DNA of 35,195 nt from a bacterium (GCA_043778525.1 JAYWGA010000013.1:1-35195); one strand, 5' to 3'; shown: positions 3,001-35,195, numbered from the stretch's first letter. Made by a program: numbers and translations. The notes: generated by a model not told the origin, from the letters alone.

Positions 3001-3051
3001 TACGAAAAAGGTTAATAATAGTATTGAGATAATTTGCTTGCTTTTGTTCAT
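1..3051 (-). CDS. Secreted subtilisin-like (S8) serine protease with C-terminal FN3-like and PKD-like repeat modules; C-terminal part of the gene (3' end) lies beyond the window edge
   Basis: Minus-strand frame opens at the ATG at 3049-3051 and has no stop down to position 1, so it is open-ended and absent from the ORF track. My translation starts MNKSKQIISILLLTFFVFQNALA (signal peptide). It contains the subtilase triad motifs VAVIDAGID (Asp), ATHGNSVASLIG (His) and NGTSFSTPLV (Ser). The C-terminal half has two S..W..GAA.Y modules and two modules ending YPSAG(T/S)YCVK..AVD..G. Confidence 0.85.
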   Translation of the reverse strand, partial: MNKSKQIISILLLTFFVFQNALAQSANESVDVKITEQVNRLQSFEVPASTTLQGTVQTSQDKVFKENIIFVNKKHVKKEKLEKEKKVRDNVRSKFLNKIDEIKSKKKINKGLNFSEYDDLKKINQDIIAETKLATVGDEQIEPSVLMSLEETYLPSDPMLTEQWYLFRIFENTKGLFLNKKSENIPVVAVIDAGIDFSNKDIELQKWSGDTCVNEFFEKINEGCLGGYDFVDNDNDPSPADGATHGNSVASLIGAQNDNDTGIASISRGNVKIMSLRVANGGLLETDNVVRAIYFAVHNGANIINMSFAGPTFSQSLLDAIKYAESHGVVMVAAAGNYGKNLDVEAVYPASYKNKAVITVAAINENGLVPAWSNYGKAVDLFAPGTNILALTQNGVYTKINGTSFSTPLVTSYLADALSKNIDTKKALRKLPNVGNLANVSKNGTVLGGGNFLSGVQTSKNEIQTTLQKDSTGKYFDPQTKGGEYVDPKNYKPNNSLQAINYSLGLPVMYAPGTTASPGPSVSANSSVTFSWGSGSGAAKYGVYIRDLTTNTLILDTYNNPITGNSFTHNYPYVAGRAYRWNMNSFDSSNNNSSAYTTAFNFTITVSQLSAPSSLTPGSTAAYGPVLSGTTQNLSWNSISGAAGYFVEYTNISTGAINNYSTAYTYQSVPLVAGQYYKWRVATINSSSQYGSYSNFNYFQAASAAPTNTAPSTPNVSVPSTGTTGVSLTANFVSNDPEGNSIMYFVNWNGNGGSTTYQAGYYSSGTTGTATFSYPSAGTYCVKVYAVDNLGATSGTSPCYNITISAPATAGAPTLSVTPSTQTITSGTNANFTLTTTNVSSCSISGGGFTNVALSSVNSGYNFAPTTSYTYTINCAGTNGTSIARNFTVNVNAATTNETPTVPVLSGTGAQILGTAYVVGLSSTDPQADQINYFVMMDSNSTTNTQSFGPFGPYTGGINLSHIYPSAGSYCVKSRAVDTKGNSSAWSGCHNVTITSATPPATPETPTIPVLTGTRAA

Positions 3052-3086
3052 ATAAATTTGGTTTGGTGTTTTGGGTGACATGAAAT

Positions 3087-5260: not shown

Positions 5261-5280
5261 ATCTTTATATTTATAATATC

Positions 5281-5330
5281 AAAAAACAAACAAAAAGAAA
5301 ACCCGTCCAATCGAATGTCGACTGGACGGG
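5281..5330 (-). terminator. Strong intrinsic terminator about 20-40 nt upstream of the pheT start codon
   Basis: Minus-strand CCCGUCCAGUCGA-CAU-UCGAUUGGACGGG (5302-5330): a 13-bp stem including one G-U pair, with a 3-nt loop. It is followed by UUUUCUUUUUGUUUGUUUUUU (5281-5301). Confidence 0.7.
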
Positions 5331-5621
5331 GAAATTAAGGATTTTGTAATATCTTTATTGGTGAGGTTTTATTAGTCTCATCCATTTTTATGACAGATGA
5401 CATAGATGTCACCAAACATCACAGATAATACTTTTAAAGGCGTTGCATCCTCAAACACCTACCTCTGATACTGTGCTAATGTTTGGGAACTACAGTATCT
5501 CAATACAGGCTTTTGGCTTAACCTGAGGAGTTATCCCTAAACAAACTCTTGAAAAAATTTGCCGTTTTCTAAGAGGTCCTCACAATTTAATAATACTAAA
5601 TTAATATGTTTCTGTAAAATT
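5331..5621 (-). promoter_or_regulatory. Candidate structured RNA leader or attenuator (or small RNA) filling the pheS-pheT spacer
   Basis: About 290 nt with no credible ORF. Several helices are readable by eye: 5524-5529/5577-5582, 5546-5550/5571-5575, 5467-5474/5492-5499, 5405-5409/5416-5420, and long-range 5360-5366 with 5449-5459. The region ends in the terminator at 5281-5330. No Rfam family is recognisable by eye. Confidence 0.3.
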
Positions 5622-6426: not shown

Positions 6427-7392
6427 CTAAATTACACTTTTTAAAAGCTCTTTAAATCCGTGGGTATTTACAAAATAATTTTCTTTATTTTTATTTAAAA
6501 ATTCCTTTATAACTTTTTTCTGCTGAAAAGTTTTGCCAGAAACAAGAGTATCTTCAGACAACAAATTAAAATATACACCGTCCAAAAAAGATACATAAGA
6601 GACATTTTTTTCTTCAAAAGAAATAAAATTAATGATCTCAGACATTTGTTTATCCTGTCCTCCACCGGATTCTTTTACATGTTTATGCTCCAATATAAAA
6701 ATCCTATTTTTAATTTTAAATAGAAAGTCTGTCTGTTTATTTTCATGCTTTTTTGACCAATCAAAATTAATTTTGTAATATACTAAAATTTCTTTAAAAA
6801 TAACTTTATCTTGTTTGTCTGGATAAATATACGCCATATCACTATTTGAAAAGTCTTTTATGTTTTCACCTTCAAAATGTTTTAAACCAAAAGAATCTAA
6901 AACATCAGAAACTTTCTTACTACCAGTATTACCATTTTTTTTATGAGCCTTAGAATCACTCAAAACTTGCATACTTGAAGAACTATATCCATGGGTTAAA
7001 TATAGCGCATGTCTATCCTTTATAAATTCAGGAATCATTTTTTCTAAAAATTCTAATTTTAAAACTTCCGTTTTTAAAGTTTTTTGATATACACTAAAAG
7101 AGATATCTTTTGTCGCCCAAAAGCTAGTAAATTCAGTAAAATTTATACCTTTAACCTTTAAAAGATTAAGTATATTTAGCAATATACTTTTTTGCATTTT
7201 TATATTCTTAGCCAGAGTAGCTATTTTATAAGCAGATATGTTTTCTAAAATCTCACTATTTGCAAGCATGAGAGCATTTTTTATTTCTATATTTTTTTCT
7301 ATTATTAGATTAGAATCTTTTATATAATATTTATCTATATAATTTTCTTTATTCTTAAAACTTTCTTCTAGGGCTATTATATTATCAATCAT
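6427..7392 (-). CDS. Putative type II restriction endonuclease (PD-(D/E)xK-like), partner of the upstream methyltransferase
   Basis: 321-aa ORF starting 8 nt after the methyltransferase stop. Candidate catalytic signature TDFLFKIKNRIFILEHKH (D...ExK), followed by GGGQDK. Assignment rests on context plus this motif only. Confidence 0.5.
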   Translation of the reverse strand: MIDNIIALEESFKNKENYIDKYYIKDSNLIIEKNIEIKNALMLANSEILENISAYKIATLAKNIKMQKSILLNILNLLKVKGINFTEFTSFWATKDISFSVYQKTLKTEVLKLEFLEKMIPEFIKDRHALYLTHGYSSSSMQVLSDSKAHKKNGNTGSKKVSDVLDSFGLKHFEGENIKDFSNSDMAYIYPDKQDKVIFKEILVYYKINFDWSKKHENKQTDFLFKIKNRIFILEHKHVKESGGGQDKQMSEIINFISFEEKNVSYVSFLDGVYFNLLSEDTLVSGKTFQQKKVIKEFLNKNKENYFVNTHGFKELLKSVI

Positions 7393-7400
7393 ACTTTTAT

Positions 7401-8417
7401 TTAAAATAGCTTACTACCAAAACCAGACTCTTGATAAGCTTCTTCCAAGATAGCTCTAGCTGTTGTGTAGTCTAGCCTTCTTCGTCTCTCTCCATTTTTT
7501 TTGTTACCTTTAAAAGGTGAAAGTAATACATCACTTGTTTTTATTCTAAATTTAGATAATATAAAATTACTTTTATCTATAATTTCTTGCACTGATTCTT
7601 TTTCTGTTAAATTAATTTCTATAAGAGTGATCAGTCTAGAGCTGACTTTTATAGTTGTAAGATCATAGTCCATTTCATTTGGATTCATAAATTGTATTGG
7701 TCTATTTATGTTTGTGGTATCTACTGCACGCAATGCGATTTGCCCATTAAGAGAATTAAACTTTAAACCTAAGTTTTTACTAGGAATTTTTTTCATATCT
7801 TCTATTTCTTTTAAATTTCCAATATAAATGTCGTTTTTGTAAATCTCTATATTACCATAGTCTTTTACAATATTATCAAAACAAATTACACATATCGGGG
7901 TCTCTGTATCATCAAACATTAAATCTTCAATAATAGTAATACTCTTTAATCTATTTTTAGGAAAACTAGAGTTTATAAAAGTTTCTGGCACTATCATTAC
8001 ACCATATTCATTGTTTTCTAAACATTTTTCTATCGCTATCTGATAAAGATCATCGTATTTAGAATTTTCAAAGTATTGAAGCACACTATCATATACACCT
8101 TTTCTACTTGCACTATATTTTGCTAGATATGGAGGATTTGTTATTATAATAGAGTCTTTTATTTTTTGTATTTTTATTAAACTATCATTTATTTTATAAT
8201 TTAAAGTTTTATCAATATCAAAACCTAAAACTTTTTTAAACCCTATTTGTTTTGCAGCTAAAAGCAAATCTCCCTTTCCAGCGAAAGGATCAAAAGCTAT
8301 AGTTTTATTACTATTTTCAATGAAATCAAGAATGTGTTTTTTTAGCCAAAAATGATTTTTTGTAAAAAATTGACCTAGTGTAGTTTTTTTTGTGCTATTT
8401 TTTATGTTTTCACTCAT
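7401..8417 (-). CDS. N6-adenine DNA methyltransferase (gamma-class motif order)
   Basis: 338 aa. Motif X-like GQFFTK, motif I FDPFAGKGDLL and motif IV ITNPPY occur in that order. Confidence 0.85.
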   Translation of the reverse strand: MSENIKNSTKKTTLGQFFTKNHFWLKKHILDFIENSNKTIAFDPFAGKGDLLLAAKQIGFKKVLGFDIDKTLNYKINDSLIKIQKIKDSIIITNPPYLAKYSASRKGVYDSVLQYFENSKYDDLYQIAIEKCLENNEYGVMIVPETFINSSFPKNRLKSITIIEDLMFDDTETPICVICFDNIVKDYGNIEIYKNDIYIGNLKEIEDMKKIPSKNLGLKFNSLNGQIALRAVDTTNINRPIQFMNPNEMDYDLTTIKVSSRLITLIEINLTEKESVQEIIDKSNFILSKFRIKTSDVLLSPFKGNKKNGERRRRLDYTTARAILEEAYQESGFGSKLF

Positions 8418-13734: not shown

Positions 13735-14343
13735 TTAATTATTTTTTTGTAAAATCTTAATAAAAAATGGTAGTGTAATAAAAAAAGAAAATACTATAAA
13801 AGCAAGCAAAGGGAAAGTAATATGACCATATTCAAATATAATCATTTTAGAGCATTCACCGCCCGATACAGGGCAAGGTAAATGCGAATCTTTTGAGAGG
13901 GCCGTAATCTGCAAAACATGATGATACAAAGCTATAATAGCCCCAAGTACAGCAAAGCTTTTAATATATTTTACTACGCTTTTATATTCCACTTCACTCC
14001 TAGTGTACAATGCAGTAGCTGATATGACTACGAGCCCATACATAAAAACTCTTTCAAACCAGCAAAGGGCGCAAGGTATGATACCGAGATATTCCGAATA
14101 AAACAAAGTCATGGCAGCCGAAAATAAAGAAAAAACAAAAACAAACATTAAATATAATTTATCAAAATTGTATCTATGAGCTCTTAAATCTCTCCTAAGA
14201 AATCTATCAGCTTTATTCTTAAAACTATTTGATAAAAAATAGAAAGCAAAAAAACTCAGTAATAATACTAAAATAATTTCTAATAAAAGTGCGAAAGTAG
14301 CAATAATAAAATTTAGATTTACGAGTATAGTTACTTTGTCCAT
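13735..14343 (-). CDS. DsbB/BdbC-family disulfide bond formation protein with an N-terminal extension
   Basis: 202 aa, polytopic membrane protein. CALCWFERVFMY (CxxC...R motif) sits in the first loop, and a second Cys pair (CPVSGGEC) sits in a later loop. Confidence 0.6.
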   Translation of the reverse strand: MDKVTILVNLNFIIATFALLLEIILVLLLSFFAFYFLSNSFKNKADRFLRRDLRAHRYNFDKLYLMFVFVFSLFSAAMTLFYSEYLGIIPCALCWFERVFMYGLVVISATALYTRSEVEYKSVVKYIKSFAVLGAIIALYHHVLQITALSKDSHLPCPVSGGECSKMIIFEYGHITFPLLAFIVFSFFITLPFFIKILQKNN

Positions 14344-18630: not shown

Positions 18631-18715
18631 ATATTTAAATCATATCAAAAAACTGCAAATTAATAAAGTATCGAAAAATTTTGAGTTTGTATTTAATAAC
18701 AAATTATACAGTAGA

Positions 18716-18741
18716 AAGCGCGGCCCTTTGGGGCCGCGCTT
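18716..18741. terminator. GC-clamp hairpin terminator downstream of the 18771..19262 gene
   Basis: AAGCGCGGCCC-TTTG-GGGCCGCGCTT: a perfect 11-bp stem 30 nt after the TGA stop of the minus-strand gene. The T-run (TTTTC) lies only on the plus-strand side, so directionality is ambiguous. Confidence 0.55.
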
Positions 18742-18770
18742 TTCGCACGCTGTATAGCATGCAATTTATT

Positions 18771-19262
18771 TCAATCCTCCGTGGAAAGATCTCCCACAGT
18801 CAGATACAAAGGTGTATTAAAGAGAGGATCCCCACCACATCTCTGAATAGCATCTGCCAGACGCCCATGTCCACTTTGCATTCCGCATTCGAGATATTCG
18901 TCAAGAATAATGCACATAAAGTGCCGCCTAACATTTATCCTCGGAGCATTCTTGCGAGAACACCACTGATCGAAAGCACCTTCAGAAAAATGCTTCCAAG
19001 CACTTTTGTCGTCAGTACGAATGCCTGCAAATGGCGCATTTGCCAGCGCACACACAAGCTCATAGAATTCTTCTGCTGAAGGATTCTTTGGCATCTCTGC
19101 ACGATATTTCAAAAGAGCGGCCCTTATCAGGTTTTGCCCACCTTCGAGTTCACCTGCTAGCTGCACTAGCGCATACTCGATAGTTTTTGTCGCTTCATCA
19201 TCTTGAAGGCGGCAAAATTCATAAAGCATTGCGGTGGCAGTCATGTTTTCAACTTTTTTCAT
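18771..19262 (-). CDS. Hypothetical protein, compositionally atypical (G+C-richer) orphan
   Basis: 163-aa ORF with the SD-like GAGGAG 8 nt before the ATG (minus strand, about 19271-19276) and a TGA stop. No signal peptide and no recognisable family. Confidence 0.55.
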   Translation of the reverse strand: MKKVENMTATAMLYEFCRLQDDEATKTIEYALVQLAGELEGGQNLIRAALLKYRAEMPKNPSAEEFYELVCALANAPFAGIRTDDKSAWKHFSEGAFDQWCSRKNAPRINVRRHFMCIILDEYLECGMQSGHGRLADAIQRCGGDPLFNTPLYLTVGDLSTED

Positions 19263-20921: not shown

Positions 20922-21038
20922 AAGAATTTACTTTTAGCAACAAAAGATGTATTATTTACAAATACAACGAGGAGTGAAAAGACCCTTGCTCTTTTTCTGA
21001 AACCAACAGGCCATGTGCCTACAAAAAGGAGATTCACC

Positions 21039-21494
21039 ATGCTTAATCGTATTATTTTGGCTATCACCTTCTTTCTTTCTTTTTCTTTTTTTGGTGCAAT
21101 ATCTACTGAGGCAGAAGGTCTTCCAATTTGGAAAACAGCTTTATACAAGGCTTCTACAGAAGGAAAGATCCAAGCGGATATTTTTGAAGAAATTCTTGTC
21201 CAGCTAAATGATGGACAAGCCCCAACACCTAAAGATATCAGTAAACTAGTGCAGCAAGAAAAAATACTAGAGGCTGCTATCAAGGATCTTATTCAAGAAA
21301 TAAAACATGAAAAAGAGAGACTTCTTTTTATCACCACTTCTGCTTGTAAACAAGTTGAGGCTGAGATTTGCAAAAAGGAAAAAGCTTCTCTTCAGGTTTT
21401 TTATACTGAGATTGAAAAATCAAAAGATTATACCTTATCCATTATTTGGCTTTTGGAACAGACTCAAGGCTTTATAGATAGCCTGAGCATATAA
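21039..21494 (+). CDS. Hypothetical secreted coiled-coil protein
   Basis: ATG at 21039 is preceded by AAGGAG. Starts with the signal peptide MLNRIILAITFFLSFSFFGAISTEA. I trimmed the track ORF (21015..) to this start. Confidence 0.55.
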   Translation: MLNRIILAITFFLSFSFFGAISTEAEGLPIWKTALYKASTEGKIQADIFEEILVQLNDGQAPTPKDISKLVQQEKILEAAIKDLIQEIKHEKERLLFITTSACKQVEAEICKKEKASLQVFYTEIEKSKDYTLSIIWLLEQTQGFIDSLSI

Positions 21495-21500
21495 AAAATT

Positions 21501-21540
21501 GATGGGCGGAGGCTAAAGCCTCCGCCCATCTTCATTTTTA
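21501..21540. terminator. Bidirectional intrinsic terminator between convergent genes
   Basis: GATGGGCGGAGGCT-AA-AGCCTCCGCCCATC (21501-21530), flanked by AAAAAATT upstream and TTCATTTTTA downstream. It sits between the 21039 gene (+) and smpB (-). Confidence 0.7.
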
Positions 21541-23298: not shown

Positions 23299-25155
23299 TT
23301 ATTTTTGGTTAAAGCTTTTTATATAATCAATTTCTTGATCAGATAATAATAAATTTTTCATAATAAAATTGTCTAATCTATCAAAACTTTCTTTTCCTAA
23401 AATAATATCATCGGTCTGATTTATAATTTCTGAAATAATTTCATCTTTCCAAATCGGTATAGGCAAGCTTTCGATTTGATTTCTTAAAACTTTAATACTT
23501 GAAAATTTTTTTTGAAAAATAAATTGATATGGTGAAGAGTTTAATATTGCAGCAATTGCTTTTATCGGATAGTTTTTTATTCTAGGAATAACTATATTAG
23601 CACTATTTAAAGTTAGTCTTTGCTGATCGTCATAAGCAAAGACTAGATACTTTGATATAAATCTATAGACGAGTTTTTCTTCTGCTCTGTATTTTTTTTC
23701 GGGTGCTACCTGCTGAAAACTTTCAGGTCTAAACTCAATATAATTTGCAGGAGAAGAAAAAACTATTTTATTTATTTCCTTACCTTTGTATATAGGCTCT
23801 TGGCCATCTGCTTTTTTAGATGTTATAAACTTCTCATTATCTCCTGTGACGATTCCAAGTGCCCAGTCAGCATTACCTTCTAATGTAATATGCTTAGTGG
23901 CGTATATTTTTTCAATTATTTTAAGATCTGAATCTTTTGAATGTATATCAAATATATAGTCTTGGTTTTTTAGCCACTCAGATTGCTTAATTTTGTGATT
24001 ATCACCATTTTGAATAAAAATATCACCCCTGTTATTGCTTTTCAACAAATCTAGCCTAACAACAGGTGTAAACACATTTTTAAAAACCCTATCTAAGTGA
24101 ACAACCTTTTTAATTTTTGTATTATTTAAAATATATTTCCTAATGTCATTGTGCACTTTAACATTTAAAATTGATTCTGGCAGAATAAATGATAAAGCGC
24201 CTCCATCTTTTAATAGATCAACACTTTTTTTAATAAAATATGAAAATGACTCTAGAGAATTTATTTCAGGAAATTTCTTTTTTAATTCTACAATTTCTTC
24301 ATTTGAGAAATGAACACCCCATGGTGGATTTGTTGCTATAACATCAAAGTCTTTTATATTTTCATCATTTAAGCTAAACAAATCAAAATTACCAATATCT
24401 AAAAGAGTATTTTTGCAAACAATATTTGGAGAGAAATTTATTTGTCTATACTGTAAAAGAATGTTGAGCCTGGCAATCCTAACTGCAATAGAATCTATGT
24501 CCGCTCCATAAATATTTCTTGGATCTGTTATTATTTTCGAAAAAGCAAGTATAAACTGCCCAGATCCACAGCAAGGGTCAAAGACTTTAGAATCTGGTTT
24601 AACAAATTCTTTTACTATATCACTTACTATGCTTTCGGGGGTATAGTAAGATCCATTTTTTGATTTTACACCTTCTAATAATAATGACTGATAAAAGGCA
24701 CCTAGAATGTCTGTTCCGTTCTTCAAAGGAATATTTTTAAAAAAGGTAAAAGCTTCTTCATCCACCAAATGACAAACATTTTTATACCAGTCTGTAATTT
24801 CAATTTTAATTTGTTTATTTTTAAAATTAACTTTTTCTATCTTACTTAATTCTAAAAAACTAATTTCTTTTAAAATATTTTCTATTGTAAGCAGTCTCAA
24901 AGCCAATAAGAAAGTGGCAGCAGAGATATCAATTTTTTTTAAGTGGCAAAAATTCAATATACTTAAAAAACTCTCATCTACTTTAATGTATTCATCTGGT
25001 ATAAAAGTTTTAACGGAATTTGTTTTATTTGCTCTATTTTTTAATTTATTTTTCTCATCAATCATCAAGCTTAAATTACCGGTCTTTTCCCAATTTTTAA
25101 AAGTCGCACTTGACATGTTTAAAGAGGGCTTTTCTTTTTGATAAAGATCTTTCAT
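23299..25155 (-). CDS. N6-adenine DNA methyltransferase (Eco57I/TaqI-like gamma class) with C-terminal target-recognition region
   Basis: 618 aa. Contains GSYYTPESIV (motif X), VFDPCCGSGQFIL (motif I) and VIATNPPWG (motif IV), followed by a long C-terminal domain. Confidence 0.85.
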   Translation of the reverse strand: MKDLYQKEKPSLNMSSATFKNWEKTGNLSLMIDEKNKLKNRANKTNSVKTFIPDEYIKVDESFLSILNFCHLKKIDISAATFLLALRLLTIENILKEISFLELSKIEKVNFKNKQIKIEITDWYKNVCHLVDEEAFTFFKNIPLKNGTDILGAFYQSLLLEGVKSKNGSYYTPESIVSDIVKEFVKPDSKVFDPCCGSGQFILAFSKIITDPRNIYGADIDSIAVRIARLNILLQYRQINFSPNIVCKNTLLDIGNFDLFSLNDENIKDFDVIATNPPWGVHFSNEEIVELKKKFPEINSLESFSYFIKKSVDLLKDGGALSFILPESILNVKVHNDIRKYILNNTKIKKVVHLDRVFKNVFTPVVRLDLLKSNNRGDIFIQNGDNHKIKQSEWLKNQDYIFDIHSKDSDLKIIEKIYATKHITLEGNADWALGIVTGDNEKFITSKKADGQEPIYKGKEINKIVFSSPANYIEFRPESFQQVAPEKKYRAEEKLVYRFISKYLVFAYDDQQRLTLNSANIVIPRIKNYPIKAIAAILNSSPYQFIFQKKFSSIKVLRNQIESLPIPIWKDEIISEIINQTDDIILGKESFDRLDNFIMKNLLLSDQEIDYIKSFNQK

Positions 25156-27620: not shown

Positions 27621-28435
27621 AATTCTAGTATATATGAAATATCTATAATGTAAAAGTTAAAAATGTTGTATAAAAGTAAAAAAGTTAAGATACCAAAAAA
27701 TAAAAATGGCAGAAAAGGCATTTCAAGTTTTTTTACATATTTTTTGTACTTTATAAACATAAAAATAATACTAAAAATAGCCCCAATCCATACACTATAA
27801 AGAAAAATATTTATGCCAAAACTGAGACCAAAAAATAAGAATAAAGAAATAATTGAAAACAAATCTGCAAAGCCAAAATATATTTCTTTTTTAGCAAATA
27901 TAAAAGCAAGCACAAAACTAAATACTAAGAATAGTAAAGTATACAAAGAAAAATTTGTAAAATAATTAAAAATAATAGTGAGTAGGATAAATAAATATAG
28001 ATAGACACTTTCTACCATTTTTTCTTTATAATCCTGATATGTCAAAGTACCAAACAAAAAACTAAAAGTAAAAGTAATCAAAATATTTATAAATAAATTT
28101 AAATTTTCATTTATTAAAATAATTAAATTATTTTGTAAAAATGCAAATAAACTGAGCGCAAAAACTCCAAGCAAAATCTCACAGATAAAATATTCTTTTT
28201 TTATTGGGATTTTGCAGTTTTTACACTTACCAAGGTAGGCTGCAAAGGAAAACACTGGCAATAGCTGATACCAAGAAAGAGTTTTTTCACAGCTATCACA
28301 AAAAGACTTTTTACTTTTTACTTTTTTGCTTTCGTTATTATTTTTTCTAAAATAACTAGCGCAGATAAAGCTAGCAAGTGAGGCACCTAAAATAAAAATA
28401 AGAAAGTAAAATAAATAAATAAATAAATTTTCCAT
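27599..28435 (-). CDS. pilD: Prepilin peptidase (A24 family)
   Basis: 278 aa, polytopic. The N-terminal region has the CDSC...LPVFSFAAYLGKCKNC four-Cys motif typical of PilD. A candidate second catalytic Asp lies in GFADL. Confidence 0.72.
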   Translation of the reverse strand: MENLFIYLFYFLIFILGASLASFICASYFRKNNNESKKVKSKKSFCDSCEKTLSWYQLLPVFSFAAYLGKCKNCKIPIKKEYFICEILLGVFALSLFAFLQNNLIILINENLNLFINILITFTFSFLFGTLTYQDYKEKMVESVYLYLFILLTIIFNYFTNFSLYTLLFLVFSFVLAFIFAKKEIYFGFADLFSIISLFLFFGLSFGINIFLYSVWIGAIFSIIFMFIKYKKYVKKLEMPFLPFLFFGILTFLLLYNIFNFYIIDISYILELWQFIMI

Positions 28436-28444
28436 ATGTTATTA

Positions 28445-30190
28445 TTATAGCTTTTCTATTTCTTTTTTCAAAGTGTCTAGCTTACTATTTATTTTTTTTA
28501 GTAATACAAAATTTTCTTCATTAAAAGTTTCTTTATTTTTTATATTTGTACTTGCGCGGATTTTTTCCAAAAATCCACGCACAGCCACAAACACGCTTTC
28601 AGAAATAAGCTCTCTCAGCTGCTCTTCATTTTTATTCACCATTTTTTCCTGCATATCTTTTTCTAGTTTTATGCGCTCTATGTTTTTTAGATCTTCATTT
28701 TCTAGCACTTCCAGTATTTCGGTATCTCCAAAATCTTTTAATATGTTTAAAAGAAAATCTCTAAACATTTCTTGCTTCGAGGTGCTTAGCTTTTCTATAA
28801 AAACAAAAGTAGAAATAAATAAAAGTGATATGTCTACTATTTTTTTTACAGTTTCTTCTTTTTTTATATATACCTTTGACTGCTCTATTTGAGTTAGGTC
28901 ATTTGCTATGTTTAAATCTTTAAGCTCAGCCAATACACTTTCTGACTTTATACCAGACACATCTTGTACATCTTTTGCATAACTTTCGCGTGACATCTGG
29001 CTACGTACACTTGCTAGTATTGGTAGTATTTCTTTTTTTATTCTCTGGCTTATCTTGAGATTGTCACCCTCCTTTTCTCCTTCTATTATCTTTTTAGTGA
29101 GTAGTTTAAATATTGATATCGGGTTTTGGGATATCTCTAGCCAGGCTTGTGGACTATCACAAATAATATCGGCAGGATCTTTTGCATCGACTATATCGAG
29201 TCCTTCTACATGCATATCATAAAATAGCGATATCTGCGCCGACTTTTTCATAGCTTCAAATCCGGCCTTGTCTGTATCTAGTGACAGCACTACCGTATCG
29301 GCAAATCTTTTTAATATATTTACATGTGCCTCAGTCAAAGCTGTGCCAGATATAGCCACAGTATTTACGACCCCTGCCTGATGCGACATTACTGTGTCCA
29401 TCTGCCCTTCTACTAGTATCACTTTTTTTTGTTTGGCTATTTCGGTTTTGGCTTTATCAAATCCAAATAGTACGGATGACTTGTGATACAGGCTCGTCTC
29501 TGGACTATTTACATATTTGGCTATACCTTCTTTTTCTTTATTTGCATCTGGTCCTATGATACGACCCGTAAAAGCGACGACTTTACCAGAAGTATTTGTA
29601 ATGGGAAACATAATACGAGATCTAAATCTATCATAAAATCCTTTTTCATGTTTTATACAAAGGCCCGACTCTAGTATCTCCTCATCGCTAAAGCCACTCT
29701 TTAAAAGAAAGCTATACAGAGTACGCCAGTCATTTATAGCAAAGCCAATACGAAAAAGATGTGTAGTCTCAGCTGTGATACCACGACCCTCGACATAGCC
29801 TCTAGCCTCAAAGCTCTCTTGCAAATTTTTTTGAAAAAAGATAGTTGCCTTTTCTAGTATTTCAAAACTACGCGAGTTTTCTTCTTTCTTAAAAGTAGAA
29901 AGCGAGACCCCAGCTTTTTCGGCCATTAGTTTGAGCGCATCTTTAAAAGGAATATTTTCTATATTCATAGTAAAGGTAAAAATATCGCCATGTGCAGCGC
30001 AGCCAAAGCAATGGTAAAAGTTTTTGGCAGGCGAAACATAAAAGCTAGGCGACTTTTCATTATGAAAAGGACAACGACCCTTGAACTGCGTCCCCGACTT
30101 TTCGAGGCGCACATAGTTTGAAATCACATCTACAATATCCACGCGCTGTTTTATTTCTTCGAGATTGGTCTTGCTGTCAGTGTTTTGCAT
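28445..30190 (-). CDS. dnaG: DNA primase DnaG
   Basis: 581 aa. Zinc-binding CPFHNEKSPSFYVSPAKNFYHCFGCAAHGD, and the TOPRIM segments ILVEGQMD and LSLDTDKAG. Confidence 0.94.
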   Translation of the reverse strand: MQNTDSKTNLEEIKQRVDIVDVISNYVRLEKSGTQFKGRCPFHNEKSPSFYVSPAKNFYHCFGCAAHGDIFTFTMNIENIPFKDALKLMAEKAGVSLSTFKKEENSRSFEILEKATIFFQKNLQESFEARGYVEGRGITAETTHLFRIGFAINDWRTLYSFLLKSGFSDEEILESGLCIKHEKGFYDRFRSRIMFPITNTSGKVVAFTGRIIGPDANKEKEGIAKYVNSPETSLYHKSSVLFGFDKAKTEIAKQKKVILVEGQMDTVMSHQAGVVNTVAISGTALTEAHVNILKRFADTVVLSLDTDKAGFEAMKKSAQISLFYDMHVEGLDIVDAKDPADIICDSPQAWLEISQNPISIFKLLTKKIIEGEKEGDNLKISQRIKKEILPILASVRSQMSRESYAKDVQDVSGIKSESVLAELKDLNIANDLTQIEQSKVYIKKEETVKKIVDISLLFISTFVFIEKLSTSKQEMFRDFLLNILKDFGDTEILEVLENEDLKNIERIKLEKDMQEKMVNKNEEQLRELISESVFVAVRGFLEKIRASTNIKNKETFNEENFVLLKKINSKLDTLKKEIEKL

Positions 30191-30229
30191 TGCTTATATT
30201 ATAGCAAATTTTACAACTTTTATCTCAGC

Positions 30230-30835
30230 TTATCTTTTGGAAAATATATAAAAAGCGAGAGGAAAAGCTATGAATAAATAACCAAAAAATAAAGAGAAAG
30301 GGAGTGAAAACAATGTAAAAATAAAAGCAAGTAAATAAGAATAAAGTCCAACATGCTTTAATTTTATTTTAAATTTCTTTTTTAGAATATCTTTTTTAGA
30401 TATTTTTTTGACTTCTTTTTCTTGTGGATCTTTTATCATAAAGCGAGCCAACTGCGAAAACATAAGTGATATAATAATCATAATAAAGCTATACAAAACT
30501 AATGCAAATTCGTTTTTTGGATTCTTGCCTAAAAAGGTGGTAGCAAAAGGTACCAGAGCTATAAACATAAGTAAAATAGAGTTTACCCAAAGTACTTTTG
30601 TACTGAGATTTTCTATTTTAGAGAGTATTTTGTGATGATTTATCCACATTAGAGCTAGTGTAATAAAGCTCAAAAAGAAAAGCATAAAATGTGGCAGTAG
30701 ATTATACACAGAGATAAAACCCTCATATTTATTAAGGCTATTGTTTAGTGGGCTAGCTATTTCAAAGGCAAGTAATGTGATAACTATAGACATCACACCG
30801 TCAGAAAAAGACTCTAATCTTGATTTTGATATCAT
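30230..30835 (-). CDS. TMEM175/DUF1211-family putative K+ channel
   Basis: MISKSRLESFSDGVMSIVITLLAFE matches the family RxExFSDGVxAIxITLL signature, followed by about six TM helices. I trimmed the track ORF (to 31120); an alternative start is at 30871. The 5' extension overlaps a consensus promoter and a plus-strand gene. Confidence 0.72.
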   Translation of the reverse strand: MISKSRLESFSDGVMSIVITLLAFEIASPLNNSLNKYEGFISVYNLLPHFMLFFLSFITLALMWINHHKILSKIENLSTKVLWVNSILLMFIALVPFATTFLGKNPKNEFALVLYSFIMIIISLMFSQLARFMIKDPQEKEVKKISKKDILKKKFKIKLKHVGLYSYLLAFIFTLFSLPFSLFFGYLFIAFPLAFYIFSKR

Positions 30836-30878
30836 ATTTTTATAAAAGTTTAGCATATCAGACCACATCATATCACTC

Positions 30879-30906
30879 TTGACAAATAAATATAAAGTAA
30901 TATAAT
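30879..30906 (+). promoter_or_regulatory. Near-consensus sigma70-type promoter of cassette 1
   Basis: TTGACA (30879-30884), 16-nt spacer, TATAAT (30901-30906). Confidence 0.55.
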
Positions 30907-30958
30907 ATGTAGTAGGAACCCAGTATGCAGGCAATAATGCTGTGCAGAAGAGGTTCAA

Positions 30959-31480
30959 ATGAGGGACGAGCAAATGTTGAAAATTTTTTTCGGAGCTGTG
31001 GTCGCAGTTATTGTTTTGGCACTTGGCTGGTACATTTTTGTCCAGCCATATACAAATCAGAGCAGCTATGACTACGGCTGCCTGGATGCTGGCGGCAACG
31101 TGGAAACATGCCGCATTCATTCCCCCGAGTATCTTTCGCTCATCGCTGCCTACAAGGTAGCTATAACCGAAGACCGGGCACTACCCATCACTCCATGTGA
31201 ATATGGCAGTGAAAAGAAAAATTGTGTAGTGGCTGAAGGGTATGGAGAGTATTACACTTTCTATACTAAGGACAGTATACTGCAAGTCCTCTGCAATGGC
31301 GGAGGAACGCTATGTGCAAACATAGCTTCCTACGGTGAAGAAGATCAGTTTTTAAATGCTAGCTACGCGCTAGTGCTAAAAGCTGAAGATGGCAATTATG
31401 CTATCGCAGCTTTCATCTTAGAGGAGACTGTGATAAATAGTCAGGAAACTGACTTTGCATCGCAAGTAGACACGGACTAA
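30959..31480 (+). CDS. Hypothetical N-terminally anchored exported protein with six Cys (G+C-richer cassette 1)
   Basis: 173 aa. SD-like GAAGAGG lies 5 nt before the ATG. TM segment IFFGAVVAVIVLALGWYIFV, then three spaced Cys pairs. Confidence 0.58.
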   Translation: MRDEQMLKIFFGAVVAVIVLALGWYIFVQPYTNQSSYDYGCLDAGGNVETCRIHSPEYLSLIAAYKVAITEDRALPITPCEYGSEKKNCVVAEGYGEYYTFYTKDSILQVLCNGGGTLCANIASYGEEDQFLNASYALVLKAEDGNYAIAAFILEETVINSQETDFASQVDTD

Positions 31481-31504
31481 ACTCTGTGCCCACCAAAACC
31501 AAAC

Positions 31505-31535
31505 AAAGGCGCGACCTCCGGTCGCGCCTTTTTTA
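31505..31535 (+). terminator. Intrinsic terminator of cassette 1
   Basis: GGCGCGACC-TCC-GGTCGCGCC (31508-31528) followed by TTTTTT. Confidence 0.72.
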
Positions 31536-31558
31536 TTTGTATTTTAACACTTTAACTA

Positions 31559-31587
31559 TTGACTTTTATTTTTATATATGATACTAT
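31559..31587 (+). promoter_or_regulatory. Promoter of cassette 2
   Basis: TTGACT (31559-31564), 17-nt spacer containing TG at 31579-31580, then TACTAT (31582-31587). Confidence 0.5.
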
Positions 31588-31652
31588 TATGTTTAGGAGA
31601 CAAAGGCAATGCCTATGTCTTAAACCTTTATATTTCCAGGAAAGGAAATGTT

Positions 31653-31865
31653 ATGAACCATAAACCAGAAAACTGGGACTACTACGACCATAAAGCCGTA
31701 GGCAAGACCAATGTTGGTTTTGCAAAAAAAATCTCTATGCAATTTGGTACTGCAACTGAAATGTCAGTAAGTGTACTGATAATTTCAGCCAACCTGCTGA
31801 AGGCAATACCTTTATGGGTATACGCCATAGCGGTGACGGCAGCTGTTTGTCGCTACTTTTTCTAA
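31653..31865 (+). CDS. Hypothetical small membrane protein (cassette 2)
   Basis: 70 aa from the ATG at 31653, preceded by AGGAAAGGAAATGTT. The C-terminal half is hydrophobic (VSVLIISANLLKAIPLWVYAIAVTAAV). I trimmed the track ORF (31578..). Confidence 0.45.
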   Translation: MNHKPENWDYYDHKAVGKTNVGFAKKISMQFGTATEMSVSVLIISANLLKAIPLWVYAIAVTAAVCRYFF

Positions 31866-31884
31866 AAGACAAGAGCTCAGCTCA

Positions 31885-31913
31885 GGGTCGCGCGTAAGTG
31901 CGGCCCTTTGTAT
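31885..31913 (+). terminator. Intrinsic terminator of cassette 2 (GTAA tetraloop)
   Basis: GGGTCGCGC-GTAA-GTGCGGCCC (31885-31906) followed by TTTGTATTT. Confidence 0.65.
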
Positions 31914-31942
31914 TTCTTTTATATTTTTTAATACTTTAACTA

Positions 31943-31970
31943 TTGACTTTATTTATTTTTATGATACTAT
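31943..31970 (+). promoter_or_regulatory. Promoter of cassette 3
   Basis: TTGACT (31943-31948), 16-nt spacer with TG at 31962-31963, then TACTAT (31965-31970). Confidence 0.5.
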
Positions 31971-32043
31971 TATAAGAAGAAGTGTGCGGCAATAATGCCA
32001 AACACTTAAACACCTTGAAACTTTTGTCTCGAAAGGACACATT

Positions 32044-32781
32044 ATGGCAGTAGATGATACACAAGCAAAAATGAACGCAGATGCCGATACAATGGCAAAA
32101 GCAGTGGAAGTGGCAAAAACTGCAGCAGCAGCACAGCCGGCCACTGCGGCTCGCCCCACAAAAAAGGTGAGGTCTCCTGCAGACAGTTCACAGATTGCAA
32201 AATTTGTGATGCCCAGGCAAGAATGGCCAGTAAAAGTAAATGGCCCAGATGACTTGGTGCTGAATATTTCTTTTTCAGCAACAGGTCAGCCCATCGCGAC
32301 ACTCGTGTCTGGGCCTGAGTCACCTCCGGCTCCGGCCGAAGCACCCAAACCTACCATCAAAGGAAAGGACGAAGCAGTCTTTGGGCAAATGCCACTGCAT
32401 CGTGACGGGAGGTTGATCACGGCAGTGCTGGTGATCATTGCGCTCCTTATTGCAATGTGGCTCCTCAACCCCCGCCTCGACGATCGCGGCTATGTCGCCC
32501 CGACGGCAGCAAAGGTGGAAACACCCGCTGTCGTGACTGCGCCAAAGGCTGAATATCAGTCGATTGAGTGTAGTGGAGAGAGACAAACTCAATGTGTAGC
32601 TCCCCTTACCAGTGGATTTGCTATGGTAGGTGAAAAAGATGTGATAACAAGATATGGCAATTGCACAAAAGGAGAAGGTGGCTTAATATGCCACCATCTC
32701 AGCATCAAGGAAGAAGGTGTTGAAAGTCGACTGTTTCTACTAGAAAAAGATACAGTTGTTGGAACTATAATGAACCCGTAA
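32044..32781 (+). CDS. Hypothetical bitopic membrane protein, Ala/Pro-rich N-terminal part, Cys-containing C-terminal ectodomain (G+C-rich cassette 3)
   Basis: 245 aa. AAAGGA lies before the ATG. TM segment LITAVLVIIALLIAMWLL near residue 135, and four Cys in the C-terminal part. The overlapping minus-strand ORFs look like high-GC shadows. Confidence 0.58.
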   Translation: MAVDDTQAKMNADADTMAKAVEVAKTAAAAQPATAARPTKKVRSPADSSQIAKFVMPRQEWPVKVNGPDDLVLNISFSATGQPIATLVSGPESPPAPAEAPKPTIKGKDEAVFGQMPLHRDGRLITAVLVIIALLIAMWLLNPRLDDRGYVAPTAAKVETPAVVTAPKAEYQSIECSGERQTQCVAPLTSGFAMVGEKDVITRYGNCTKGEGGLICHHLSIKEEGVESRLFLLEKDTVVGTIMNP

Positions 32782-32799
32782 AGGGTTTGTAATAATATA

Positions 32800-32830
32800 G
32801 GGCCGCGCGTAAGTGCGGCCCTTTCTATTT
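32800..32830 (+). terminator. Intrinsic terminator of cassette 3 (GTAA tetraloop)
   Basis: GGGCCGCGC-GTAA-GTGCGGCCC (32800-32821) followed by TTTCTATTT. It differs from the 31885 hairpin at one stem position. Confidence 0.68.
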
Positions 32831-32852
32831 CTATTTTTTAATACAATATCTA

Positions 32853-32881
32853 TTGACAGATATAAATAAATAGTATATAAT
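32853..32881 (+). promoter_or_regulatory. Consensus promoter of cassette 4 (predicts a leaderless or near-leaderless mRNA)
   Basis: TTGACA (32853-32858), 17-nt spacer, TATAAT (32876-32881). The ATG is at 32890. Confidence 0.55.
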
Positions 32882-32889
32882 ATACATAT

Positions 32890-33474
32890 ATGAAAAATAT
32901 TCGAAACAAAGCACTTTTAATAATAACACTTTCACTTTTTGCAGTATCTAGCACTTTTGCAAAGGGAGCATACTTTGCCCCATCAAAGACAAAGCCTGAT
33001 ATTTCGGGTCTTGTCGCTGATGCCGGCTGTAAATATGTAATAGACTATAATCCTTTTATGCAAGAGTACACTGTGCAGCATATTTGTAACACTATCTCCT
33101 TCCCGACTGTAAACACTCCTGTCTTTCCGGCTTATGTCAGCCCTCTTGACTCTGCACCTGTATATACAATAGATATAAATGTAGCTCAAAAGCCAAGTGT
33201 TAATGTAAATGTAAACTTCCCAGCACAAAATATAAATCTAAACACAAATAGCTTTTTTAATAATTTTTATAATTCTTTTAGACTGCCTGTTTATAAAAGC
33301 TACACCTATGACTTTAGTCAGCCATTACCTGTTTTTAGAAATTATAATTATACAAATTACACAACTTACTTTCATCCAAAACTACAAGCAAGAAATATAT
33401 CTTCTGGGAATATTTTGCCAATTAAAGTGCAAACTAATAATTCTTCTGGAAACATACTTACAACAAGAAACTAA
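32890..33474 (+). CDS. Hypothetical secreted Asn/Tyr/Phe-rich protein (cassette 4, AT-rich)
   Basis: 194 aa. Signal peptide MKNIRNKALLIITLSLFAVSSTFA, one Cys pair, and an N/Y/F-rich C-terminal half with a repeated SSGNIL. Confidence 0.55.
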   Translation: MKNIRNKALLIITLSLFAVSSTFAKGAYFAPSKTKPDISGLVADAGCKYVIDYNPFMQEYTVQHICNTISFPTVNTPVFPAYVSPLDSAPVYTIDINVAQKPSVNVNVNFPAQNINLNTNSFFNNFYNSFRLPVYKSYTYDFSQPLPVFRNYNYTNYTTYFHPKLQARNISSGNILPIKVQTNNSSGNILTTRN

Positions 33475-34070
33475 TCCCCCTTCTCAAACACCTTCTTCAA
33501 AAGCCTCACCTCTTTTTCTAGTCTATTGATAAGTACCTTCTTAACCCTCGGAGCTTTCTTATAATTCTTCTCAAACTTCTTTGCGACAGCAAGTACTCCT
33601 AGGTGAAAATCTATCCTAGTCTCAGTCACTTGCCTCAGGGTAAAAAGACTCATACCTATATCTCGCGTGTCTTTGTTTTTCCACATGTCTATTAGAGAGT
33701 AGCTATTATGTATTTTGTCAGCCAGAGACACCAGTAGCGACTCTACGCTCGAGTGTTTTAGGTTTTCTAGATAGCTTTCTTTTTTGTCTTTGTATGACAA
33801 ATCATTGTCTTCCGTCACACCTTGCACTATATTCATCACCCTTTTGCCAAAGTCATTTTCTAGATTTGTAAAAGTATAATTTGGTATGTCCTCGATAGAG
33901 TCATGCATGAGAGCGGCTACTATGATATCATCATCTTTTATGCCCTCCTCTAGTAGCAAAAACGCTACTGAGCAAAGATGAGAAAATACATGCAAGACCT
34001 CACCACCTTTACGGTACTGATCTTTATGCATTATGCTTGCTTTATTTATGGCTTCAAAAATTTTACTCAT
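33471..34070 (-). CDS. HD-domain (p)ppGpp pyrophosphohydrolase-like protein (small alarmone hydrolase type)
   Basis: 199 aa. HKDQYRKGGEVLHVFSHLCSVAFLL...IIVAALMHDSIEDIP matches the RelA/SpoT hydrolase HD signature. No synthetase domain. Confidence 0.72.
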   Translation of the reverse strand: MSKIFEAINKASIMHKDQYRKGGEVLHVFSHLCSVAFLLLEEGIKDDDIIVAALMHDSIEDIPNYTFTNLENDFGKRVMNIVQGVTEDNDLSYKDKKESYLENLKHSSVESLLVSLADKIHNSYSLIDMWKNKDTRDIGMSLFTLRQVTETRIDFHLGVLAVAKKFEKNYKKAPRVKKVLINRLEKEVRLLKKVFEKGD

Positions 34071-34076
34071 ATTATT

Positions 34077-35195
34077 TTATCTATTTTTCCACTGACTCTC
34101 TCCTCGGCATATTTCTTTTTTATCATCTGCATTTGCTAGCATTTCCCTTACTACCTTTTCTACCCTTGCCGACTGCGAGCCTTTGGCTAGTATTATATCA
34201 TTTTCTCTTATGGCATTTTTCATTACCTCCACCGCCTCAGTACTTTCATTAAAAAGAAAAAGATTATCTAAATTAAACCTAGTCTTGCGCACGCCTTCCA
34301 GATAATATTCATTGTACCTACCTATAAATATTATCATCTCGCACACCTCACCAGCTAGCATGCCTATTTTTATATGCTCACTCTCAGTCGCCTCAGCAGA
34401 TAGCTCAGCCATATGTCCGAGTACTGCTATCTTTTTACCTTTGGTGATCAGCGACTGCAGTACAGAGAGGGCTAGCTCGCTTGCCTTTGGGCTAGAGTTG
34501 TAGCTGTCGTCTATCACAGTAGAGCCGTTTATTCCTTCAAATATTCTGAGTCTGCTTTTCGGGAAAACTATTTTTTCTATGTTTTTAATGCTATCAAAAA
34601 GGTCAAGTCCCCGCGAGTGTGCTACAGTCAGTGCAGCGAGCGCTCCGTAGGCATGCGAAGCCCCCACTACTCCCAGCAGATCTATATTGCCCTGCAAAGA
34701 TATACCTAGTTCATTTTTGTATTCAAAGATTATTTTAGAGCCTTTTGCCTTTCCTTTTTCGTCGTAGATAAATGTAGTGGTGATAAGTTTAAATAGCTTT
34801 GCATTTTTACCAAAGGCTATCTTTTCGGCAGCATTAGCGACCATTGCCATCTCAGTCATGTCTTTGTCATCGGCATTATAGACTACCGTACCTGTGCTTT
34901 TTATAGAGTCCACTAGATATTTTTTTTCACGCAGGTGAGCTGCTCTATTTGGAAAAAACTCAGCGTGTACTGGATTTTCTGCAAAGGCTGTGAGTATAAC
35001 TATGTCAGACTTTATATAGCTACTAGCAAATAAAATATCCCCAGGCTTATCCGCACCGACCTCTAGTACCAGTACTTCAGGGAAATTTACTCTAATGAAA
35101 TATAATTTATAAAAGTTTTTAATTATCAAAAATATCCAGGCAAACACATTGCTCCATTTATTTTGCTCACCCAGTATGGTGAGTGGTATACCAAA
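34077..35195 (-). CDS. murF: UDP-N-acetylmuramoyl-tripeptide--D-alanyl-D-alanine ligase; N-terminal part (5' end) lies outside the window
   Basis: The frame stays open upstream of the track start to the window edge (FGIPLTILGEQNKWSN...). Contains EVGADKPGD, DDSYNSSPKASELAL, LGHMAELS and ILAKGSQSARVEKVV. Confidence 0.83.
   Translation of the reverse strand, partial: FGIPLTILGEQNKWSNVFAWIFLIIKNFYKLYFIRVNFPEVLVLEVGADKPGDILFASSYIKSDIVILTAFAENPVHAEFFPNRAAHLREKKYLVDSIKSTGTVVYNADDKDMTEMAMVANAAEKIAFGKNAKLFKLITTTFIYDEKGKAKGSKIIFEYKNELGISLQGNIDLLGVVGASHAYGALAALTVAHSRGLDLFDSIKNIEKIVFPKSRLRIFEGINGSTVIDDSYNSSPKASELALSVLQSLITKGKKIAVLGHMAELSAEATESEHIKIGMLAGEVCEMIIFIGRYNEYYLEGVRKTRFNLDNLFLFNESTEAVEVMKNAIRENDIILAKGSQSARVEKVVREMLANADDKKEICRGESQWKNR

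Follow-up and report, generated by a model that had tools for sequence, protein, structure and literature searches.

Integron cassette arrays, such as the chromosomal integrons of Vibrio with their VCR repeats, consist of small, unrelated and mostly orphan open reading frames (ORFs) that lie in one orientation between hairpin-forming repeats, and their promoterless cassettes are transcribed from a common Pc promoter. The vlp/vsp genes of Mycoplasma and the erp genes of Borrelia, with their "upstream homology box", place similar promoters and 5′ untranslated regions before divergent exported-protein genes; in these families relatedness extends to the signal peptides or coding regions, and phase-variable tracts are present. 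At the level of single transcripts, the ompA leader carries a 5′-terminal stem-loop that stabilizes its mRNA. Phage morons are autonomous promoter-gene-terminator units found in prophages, with a deviating GC content (PMC3594210). Here we analyze an island of four small genes at positions 30879-33474 of a 35,195-nt stretch of bacterial DNA (GCA_043778525.1 JAYWGA010000013.1:1-35195), which we refer to as the window. What is new here is that, by sequence comparison, the terminator-promoter junctions between the genes are paralogous although the coding sequences are unrelated. We favor, with modest confidence, the reading that this segment is a lineage-specific accessory cluster of four single-gene transcription units in the chromosome of a bacterium of the Candidate Phyla Radiation (CPR).

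The genes, denoted g1 (30959-31480, 173 amino acids (aa)), g2 (31653-31865, 70 aa), g3 (32044-32781, 245 aa) and g4 (32890-33474, 194 aa), follow one another on the plus strand between the minus-strand genes for DnaG and TMEM175 on the left and for an HD_4 hydrolase and MurF on the right. A first-pass annotation of the window had placed the four ORFs at these coordinates, had assigned each a near-consensus promoter of its own and had ended the first three at GC-clamp terminators; we confirm all three assignments. The promoters of g1 (P1, 30879-30906, TTGACA-N16-TATAAT, diverging from the TMEM175 gene) and g4 (P4, 32853-32881, TTGACA-N17-TATAAT) are the only two perfect (12/12) matches to the σ70 consensus in the whole 35-kb window. 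The promoters of g2 (P2) and g3 (P3) read TTGACT-N17-TACTAT and TTGACT-N16-TACTAT, respectively, each with a TG extension of the −10 element.

Downstream of g1 lies T1 (31505-31531), a 12-bp GC stem with a U-run and an A-tract flank of the bidirectional type (−21.4 kcal/mol, z = −5.9). T2 (31884-31907), downstream of g2, has a 10-bp stem closed by a GUAA tetraloop (−20.9 kcal/mol, z = −5.1), and T3 (32799-32822), downstream of g3, is a paralogue of T2 (−21.8 kcal/mol, z = −4.9). No folding terminator hairpin was found 3′ of g4. The region 29500-35195 holds 13 terminator-like sites against 4.4 ± 2.2 in shuffled sequence, and the same scan lists three comparably strong terminators in the remaining ~33 kb. 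A polycistronic operon would have no internal terminators or promoters; here three hairpins and four promoters are predicted from the sequence, and together they support the earlier proposal of one gene per transcription unit.

The three intergenic regions of the island each contain a copy of the junction. Copy 1 (31529-31590) runs through a T-rich, UP-like tract into the −35 element of P2 (TTGACT, from 31559) and its extended −10 element (TACTAT, to 31587). Copy 2 (31908-31973) has the same layout around P3 (−35 from 31943, −10 to 31970), and copy 3 (32823-32881) contains P4. The g1/g2 and g2/g3 regions are identical at 53 of 63 positions from the terminator T-tract through the AT-rich tract and the −35 element to the extended −10 element (z = 21.9). 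The g2/g3 and g3/g4 regions are identical at 54 of 64 positions over a stretch that opens with the terminator hairpin's first base and extends to the −35 element (T2 with P3 against T3 with P4, z = 22.2). Eight control intergenic regions of the window gave background scores in the same comparison. The core promoters P1 and P4 are also alike (29/35, z = 6.5), and T2 and T3 differ at one position, which exchanges a G-U for a G-C pair and leaves the GUAA loop common to both.

The junctions are mosaic. There are two types of terminator (T1 versus T2/T3), one type of upstream tract and −35 element (common to P2, P3 and P4) and two types of spacer and −10 element (P2/P3 versus P1/P4), such that copy 3 is homologous to copy 2 upstream of −35 and resembles P1 in its spacer and −10 element. 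The genes themselves show no similarity in any pair tested (all pairs except g2-g4) by BLASTP or shuffled Smith-Waterman alignment. As a wider background we used 50.9 kb of sequence (the ~51 kb below), obtained by joining the contig L017, the window and the contig L021, a background that contains no ribosomal-protein genes; no paralogue of g1-g4 lies elsewhere in it, and a hidden Markov model of the junction module (nhmmer) finds the three island copies and no other. As the junctions are about 84% identical and the coding sequences unrelated, the array was built by re-using one regulatory junction, not by duplicating genes. The re-use could have proceeded by duplication, recombination or gene conversion of regulatory DNA. 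JGI metagenome contigs gave 0 matches to the promoter and terminator patterns of the module, and IMG/VR gave 0 terminator matches and 32 chance 17-mer matches, none of which extend.

Unrelated orphan ORFs in one orientation, with conserved hairpin-containing repeats between them, would also be expected of an integron-like or otherwise recombinase-driven cassette array in which the hairpin junctions are the recombination sites. The hairpins, however, have the make-up of terminators, with short, near-perfect GC stems and T-runs after them, and we found zero R''(RYYYAAC)...R'(GTTRRRY) attC pairs on either strand of 30801-33600. Each cassette has a promoter of its own, no tyrosine recombinase is encoded within the ~51 kb, and there are three junction copies only. 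The 11 contigs that carry the locus, from seven samples, are 100% identical to the window wherever they overlap it and show no rearrangement. We consider an integron-like array extremely improbable. A related but bolder reading takes the conserved junction as the working part of a non-integron platform for gene capture and expression in CPR bacteria, with unrelated, possibly foreign ORFs recombined between the copies. To this we attach very little credence. If it were true, each newcomer ORF would be transcribed at once as its own unit, with a leader hairpin providing common control, and the island would be a promoter-bearing counterpart of the integron cassette array that diversifies the cell surface.

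The leaders of g1-g3 (about 46-70 nt) are each predicted to fold into a stem-loop that begins a few nucleotides from the predicted 5′ end. In g1 it spans 30926-30946 (UGCAGGCA-AUAA-UGCU(G)UGCA, with a GGCAAUAAUGC core; minimum free energy (MFE) of the leader −14.7 kcal/mol, z = −2.8). In g2 it spans 31597-31621 (GAGACA.AGGC-AAU-GCCU.UGUCUU; −19.3 kcal/mol, z = −3.8), and a second hairpin of the g2 leader covers the Shine-Dalgarno sequence. In g3 it spans 31980-32007 (AAGUGU..GGCA-AUAA-UGCC..ACACUU; leader MFE −15.8 kcal/mol, z = −3.0), and the centroid structure, with this hairpin alone, has −12.3 kcal/mol. All three hairpins have GGCA/UGCC as their inner stem (UGCU in g1), closed by a loop of AUAA or AAU. 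Reading the dot-bracket output of the folding, we find that three of the six outer-stem pairs differ between g2 and g3 on both sides (A-U to U-A, C-G to G-C and A-U to U-A). Two exact occurrences of the 11-mer GGCAATAATGC are present in the window, and both lie in these leaders. Based on three sequences, a shared leader hairpin is suggestive only. The element could serve as a hairpin that stabilizes the mRNA at its 5′ end, as the target of a common regulator or, in the DNA, as an operator palindrome. Rfam returned no family for the leaders at gathering thresholds; below threshold only terminator-driven look-alikes of small RNAs appeared.

The reading frames themselves need justification, since long ORFs arise by chance in GC-rich DNA, the antisense strand here has ORFs of 90-100 aa, no homologues were found and g1-g3 have low absolute codon scores (0.00-0.06 bit per codon). 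On these grounds the ORFs, or some of them, could be spurious, with the GC-rich stretch non-coding or coding on the other strand. Against this, in each of the four ORFs the annotated frame outscores the other five by at least 0.27 bit per codon. GC content at the first codon position exceeds that at the second in g1-g3 (the two are essentially equal in g4, 0.374 versus 0.369), and Shine-Dalgarno motifs lie at the right distance from the starts. Each of g1-g3 is bracketed by a promoter and a terminator on the plus strand. The products have coherent transmembrane or signal segments, and the cysteines, in even numbers, lie on a single side. That the genes are artifacts is, in our judgment, scarcely credible.

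The start sites of two genes are open to choice. Gene callers also use an alternative start for g1, Met-6 (30974, 168 aa), and for g2 they choose an ATG at 31578 (95 aa) that falls within the predicted P2 promoter. The 70-aa version of g2, with its GGAAAGGAAA Shine-Dalgarno motif, appears the sensible reading over the 95-aa one. With its ATG 8 nt past the −10 hexamer, the g4 mRNA is probably leaderless, and at the other end the stop codons of g4 and the convergent HD gene (33471-34070, minus strand) overlap.

All four products had been called envelope proteins, and hydropathy agrees, with one hydrophobic segment in each (g1, residues 9-27; g2, 48-66; g3, 124-142; g4, 8-26, signal-like). The g1 product is predicted to have an N-terminal anchor and an ectodomain of ~135 aa with six cysteines (41, 51, 80, 89, 112 and 119), and g2 encodes a small membrane protein. 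The g3 product is a predicted bitopic protein in which an Ala/Pro-rich N-terminal part of low model confidence (residues 1-120) precedes the transmembrane segment and an ectodomain with four cysteines (176, 184, 207 and 216). The g4 product, probably secreted, has a signal-peptide-like N-terminus, one cysteine pair (47/66) and a composition rich in Asn, Tyr and Phe. The cysteine counts of g1-g4 are thus 6, 1, 4 and 2; those of g1, g3 and g4 are all predicted on the outer side, which bears out the paired cysteines noted earlier for three of the proteins. Other exported proteins of the same genome also have even cysteine counts. Because the window also encodes a DsbB homologue (13735-14343), disulfide formation in the exported proteins is a reasonable expectation. 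The cysteine spacings of g1 and g3 are similar (9/23/7 and 8/23/9), which is suggestive only; paralogy of the two ectodomains is an unsupported lead, as the alignment scores are not significant and the predicted secondary structures differ.

The first-pass annotation recognized no known family among the four proteins, and none of them matches Pfam, NCBIfam, PHROG or PADLOC above curated cut-offs; the weak PHROG matches of g2 (E = 0.007) and g4 (E = 0.07) are to families of unknown function. The broader search for relatives that it had suggested brought up no homologue or donor in any of the collections searched. In a collection of 5.8 billion proteins, where g3 and g4 were searched by a word-indexed tool only, g1, g3 and g4 find only themselves, and all four proteins sit in singleton clusters. 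PDB sequences gave no match for g1 and g3, the two searched, and Foldseek searches of the PDB with models of the same two gave nothing (E > 0.6, TM < 0.2). An exhaustive phmmer search of g1 against 1.84 billion representatives returned g1 itself and one other hit, a 2300-aa adhesin of the type IX secretion system (T9SS). There a 45-residue stretch (YDYGCLDAGGN...) aligns with six copies of an immunoglobulin (Ig)-like repeat at 26-33 bits per copy. We rejected the identification of g1 as an Ig-like/HYR-type adhesin repeat: the E-value of 1.4e-5 is inflated by the six copies, the second cysteine is not conserved and Pfam HYR gives no hit. The likeness is best described as motif-level similarity, not homology.

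These searches also bear on phage morons, to which the first-pass annotation had compared the genes. The four units could be morons, or a remnant of a prophage or mobile element left between the TMEM175 and HD genes, and their layout and deviating GC do fit the published definition (PMC3594210). The comparison stands as an analogy of layout; the phage context is not there. Beyond the two weak hits the island proteins belong to no PHROG family, and ten unannotated ORFs of the ~51 kb match none. A tblastn search of 50,697 phage records found no match for g1-g4, IMG/VR none for g1 and g3, and plasmid records none for g3. The flanking genes encode DnaG, TMEM175, an HD hydrolase and MurF, and the precomputed Pfam families of all called genes in the ~51 kb contain zero integrases or phage genes. 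No direct repeats flank the island. We consider a phage or mobile-element remnant improbable.

The first-pass annotation had further described g1-g3 as foreign and G+C-rich on the basis of base counts (40/60 G+C in 32281-32340, 12/60 in 27961-28020) that we find to be exact. The GC contents of the genes are 0.452 (g1), 0.413 (g2), 0.499 (g3) and 0.328 (g4) against 0.346 for the window. In the sliding-window and oligonucleotide comparison that it had suggested, GC content shows a local maximum while tetranucleotides are ordinary. The 1.8-kb window 31015-32814 (GC 0.447) is the highest of 164 windows in the ~51 kb, at z = 2.4 only. The dinucleotide delta-star of the g1-g3 region (67-75 against a mean of 75 ± 29) and its tetranucleotide correlation (0.70 against 0.72 ± 0.09) are both ordinary. 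GC content at third codon positions (GC3) is 0.45, 0.42 and 0.42 in g1-g3, the top three values among 52 genes; the native HD, PheS, DnaB and MurF genes reach 0.39-0.41, with equally large synonymous z-scores. The clearest low-GC outliers of the window lie elsewhere, in the Eco57I/N6_Mtase-type restriction-modification (R-M) genes at 6427-8417 and 23299-25155 (minus strand, GC 0.24-0.28).

Within g3, the Ala/Pro-rich part had been likened to a protein of a high-GC organism. In favor of this, codons 122-166 (32407-32541, plus strand) form a patch with a GC3 of 0.71, the maximum of 12,286 45-codon windows in the ~51 kb. On the other side, the gene as a whole has a GC3 of 0.42, and its GC content expected from amino acids is already 0.455 against 0.501 observed, so about half of the excess is owed to the Ala/Pro-rich composition. 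The C-terminal cysteine domain has a native-like GC3 of 0.20-0.33. Had the gene come recently from a high-GC organism, we would expect its GC3 to be far higher.

In codon usage, too, g1-g3 are atypical. The background contains two native classes: core genes nearly avoid GTT and use ATA for ~70-83% of Ile, and accessory genes are AT-rich at third positions. In the core class (PheS/T, IleRS, DnaB, DnaJ, MurF, TrpRS), GTT makes up 0-7% of Val codons and ATA mostly 70-83% of Ile codons; in the R-M genes, pilus genes and many hypothetical genes the ranges are 20-67% and 25-56%, respectively. When the 52 genes are tested against both classes, none fits worse than g1 (z = −6.4), g3 (z = −5.2) comes next and g2 (z = −3.5) ranks fourth from the bottom; a strand-matched core model leaves the result unchanged. 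The AT-rich, native-like codons of g4 fit the accessory class. The argument that g1-g3 are native since their GC3 lies within the housekeeping range is qualified by these class-aware tests, in which g1 and g3 fit worst. The third-worst fit (z = −4.0) belongs to another GC-rich orphan ORF, at 18771-19262 (minus strand; region 18688-19262), which encodes 163 aa without a transmembrane segment and has a GC content of 0.455. A 12-bp GC-clamp hairpin resembling the island terminators (AAAGCGCGGCCC-CAAA-GGGCCGCGCTTT, about 18741-18714) lies 3′ of it.

The earlier claim of foreign composition is not established. The top GC window, the codon-usage outliers and the patch in g3 are in its favor; the z-score of 2.4 and the ordinary oligonucleotide signatures are not. 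The composition of g1-g3 is atypical, and a foreign origin is possible but unproven. As their codon usage fits neither native class, it suggests a later arrival or a different selection regime for g1-g3 than for g4.

The most serious competing explanation is that g1-g3 are native and very highly expressed, that their C-ending codons come from translational selection and that the island is an ordinary set of abundant envelope proteins. The codon excess of g1-g3 is indeed in C-ending NNY codons (0.43 against native values of 0.23 and 0.20), whereas G-ending NNR codons (0.34) equal the core value (0.31), and such an asymmetry would also be expected from translational selection on highly expressed genes. 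Consensus or extended −10 promoters, strong terminators, native-like di- and tetranucleotide signatures, a GC3 close to that of housekeeping genes and the failure to find a donor point the same way. However, g4 has an equally perfect promoter and ordinary AT-rich codons. The share of ATA among Ile codons is 23-60% in g1-g3 and about 70-83% in most core genes, and GTT is commoner in g1-g3 than in core genes. The fourfold-degenerate boxes shift to CTC, CTG, CCC, GGC and CGC, and the GC3-rich patch is limited to part of g3. We judge this explanation to be somewhat unlikely.

The window is part of a metagenomic contig, and the longest contig carrying the locus is 72.5 kb. Identical contigs are found in ENA (ERZ27314327, ERZ27314329, ERZ27314332 and ERZ28573732) and in the Logan assemblies of SRR14689461, SRR14689462 and SRR14689466. 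By DnaG, the closest species-level genome is a metagenome-assembled genome (MAG) of Candidatus Paceibacterota, at 43% identity, and the neighborhood of its dnaG gene (rpoB-rpoC-dnaG-rpoD) bears no resemblance to the locus in the window. With a best DnaG match of only 43% and no common context, the organism is a deeply divergent, Paceibacterota-like bacterium of an unsampled CPR/Patescibacteria lineage. The island is flanked on the left by the TMEM175 gene (30230-30871, minus strand), which adjoins the DnaG gene, and on the right by the HD_4 hydrolase gene, which adjoins MurF and converges on g4. A type IV pilus cluster (PilD and pseudopilins) also lies inside the window.

Under the accessory-cluster reading that we favor, each gene would be transcribed from a strong σ70-type promoter preceded by an AT-rich tract. 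The leaders of g1-g3 would share the GGCA/UGCC stem-loop, acting either as an mRNA stabilizer or as the site of a common regulator, and their transcripts would end at efficient intrinsic terminators, while that of g4 would run into the convergent HD gene. The products would be a membrane-anchored six-cysteine ectodomain (g1), a 70-aa membrane peptide (g2), a bitopic protein whose Ala/Pro-rich cytoplasmic tail is disordered and whose ectodomain has four cysteines (g3) and a secreted Asn/Tyr-rich protein with one cysteine pair (g4); the DsbB pathway, which the window also encodes, would oxidize the cysteine pairs. From the topology of the proteins, the pattern of their cysteines, their restriction to one lineage and the strong expression predicted for them, we infer that they may be abundant at the cell surface or in the envelope and possibly take part in host-cell interaction.

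Several points weigh against this reading. The di- and tetranucleotide signatures of the island are ordinary, and the promoter and terminator calls are consensus matches only. That g1-g3 fit neither native codon class could reflect a high-expression class unsampled in ~51 kb without ribosomal-protein genes. The word-indexed search of the 5.8-billion-protein collection may have missed remote homologues of g3 and g4. The AlphaFold2 models, made without an alignment, are unreliable (mean predicted local distance difference test (pLDDT) scores of 54 for g1 and 49 for g3, with confidence for the transmembrane helices only). Because all 11 contigs are 100% identical, the ratio of nonsynonymous to synonymous substitution (dN/dS), and with it selection on the ORFs, is not measurable.

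Other parts of the sequence also carry features of interest. The 361-nt gap between pheS and pheT (5261-5621, minus strand) has an MFE of −90.6 kcal/mol (z = −5.3), and its end, immediately 5′ of pheT, is formed by a 13-bp GC hairpin and U-run (5330-5302); it has no Rfam match and is a candidate unannotated structured RNA or leader/attenuator. The region made up of window 1-3081 (minus strand) and L017 12180-20056 contains the gene for an S8-peptidase/PKD surface protein of 1762 aa, inside which the window opens. Beyond this gene are two small exported proteins of 194 and 124 aa with a common signal peptide (MLKQKLK...LVSALFTLPTFAQS) and a Cys-pair motif. Over 127 nt, the gene for the 194-aa protein matches window positions 1-126, inside the large S8/PKD gene, at 97% identity. 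At 21015-21530 lies a 159-aa ORF with a GTG start, a signal-like N-terminus and one cysteine pair, and 3′ of it is a bidirectional terminator (21501-21530, 13 bp with 10 GC pairs) that is stronger than any other of its type in the window; this looks like another stand-alone exported-protein unit. About 7-10 kb past the right end of the window, L021 (1-3210) encodes a DUF8128 protein of 916 aa, whose TraG/TrwB-like hits are faint, and after it come two small ORFs of 68 and 82 aa that resemble a toxin-antitoxin pair; we found no link between these genes and the island.

CPR bacteria are believed to spend their lives attached to host cells, and little is known of the surface molecules that take part. 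The island is a reasonable candidate for the interface between a CPR bacterium and its host, as a compact and apparently strongly expressed set of lineage-restricted, putatively disulfide-bonded envelope proteins. The re-used terminator-promoter junction and the leader hairpin are concrete sequence elements and candidate expression signals for the CPR. As one example from one unsampled lineage, composed of proteins without relatives, the locus is better taken as a lead than as a discovery in itself.

Set beside the known systems, the island shares one or more features with each. Like integrons, it combines unrelated, mostly orphan small ORFs in one orientation with conserved repeats capable of forming hairpins; unlike them, it has neither attC architecture (30801-33600) nor IntI (~51 kb), and each of its four genes has its own promoter, the hairpins between them being canonical intrinsic terminators. 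The ompA leader is comparable in that envelope-protein mRNAs carry a hairpin a few nucleotides into the predicted transcript. In the island, however, the transcription starts are predicted, the GGCA-N3/4-UGCC palindrome could equally be a DNA operator and there is no Rfam match. The vlp/vsp and erp families offer the nearest functional analogy for a re-used module, given the conserved upstream non-coding region (53/63 and 54/64); they differ in that the coding regions of the island are unrelated, are without a long homopolymer tract and show no variation among contigs. The resemblance to morons lies in single-gene units with their own promoter and terminator (g1-g3; promoter only for g4), in small envelope proteins of unknown function as products and in a GC content of 0.41-0.50 for g1-g3 against 0.346 for the window, a modest deviation (z = 2.4) that g4 does not share. 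The island differs from them in lying outside any phage or prophage, with no phage family in the ~51 kb and no homologue in phage collections, and in consisting of four tandem units with paralogous junctions. We therefore class the locus as an accessory cluster of autonomous, moron-like chromosomal units joined by paralogous junctions.

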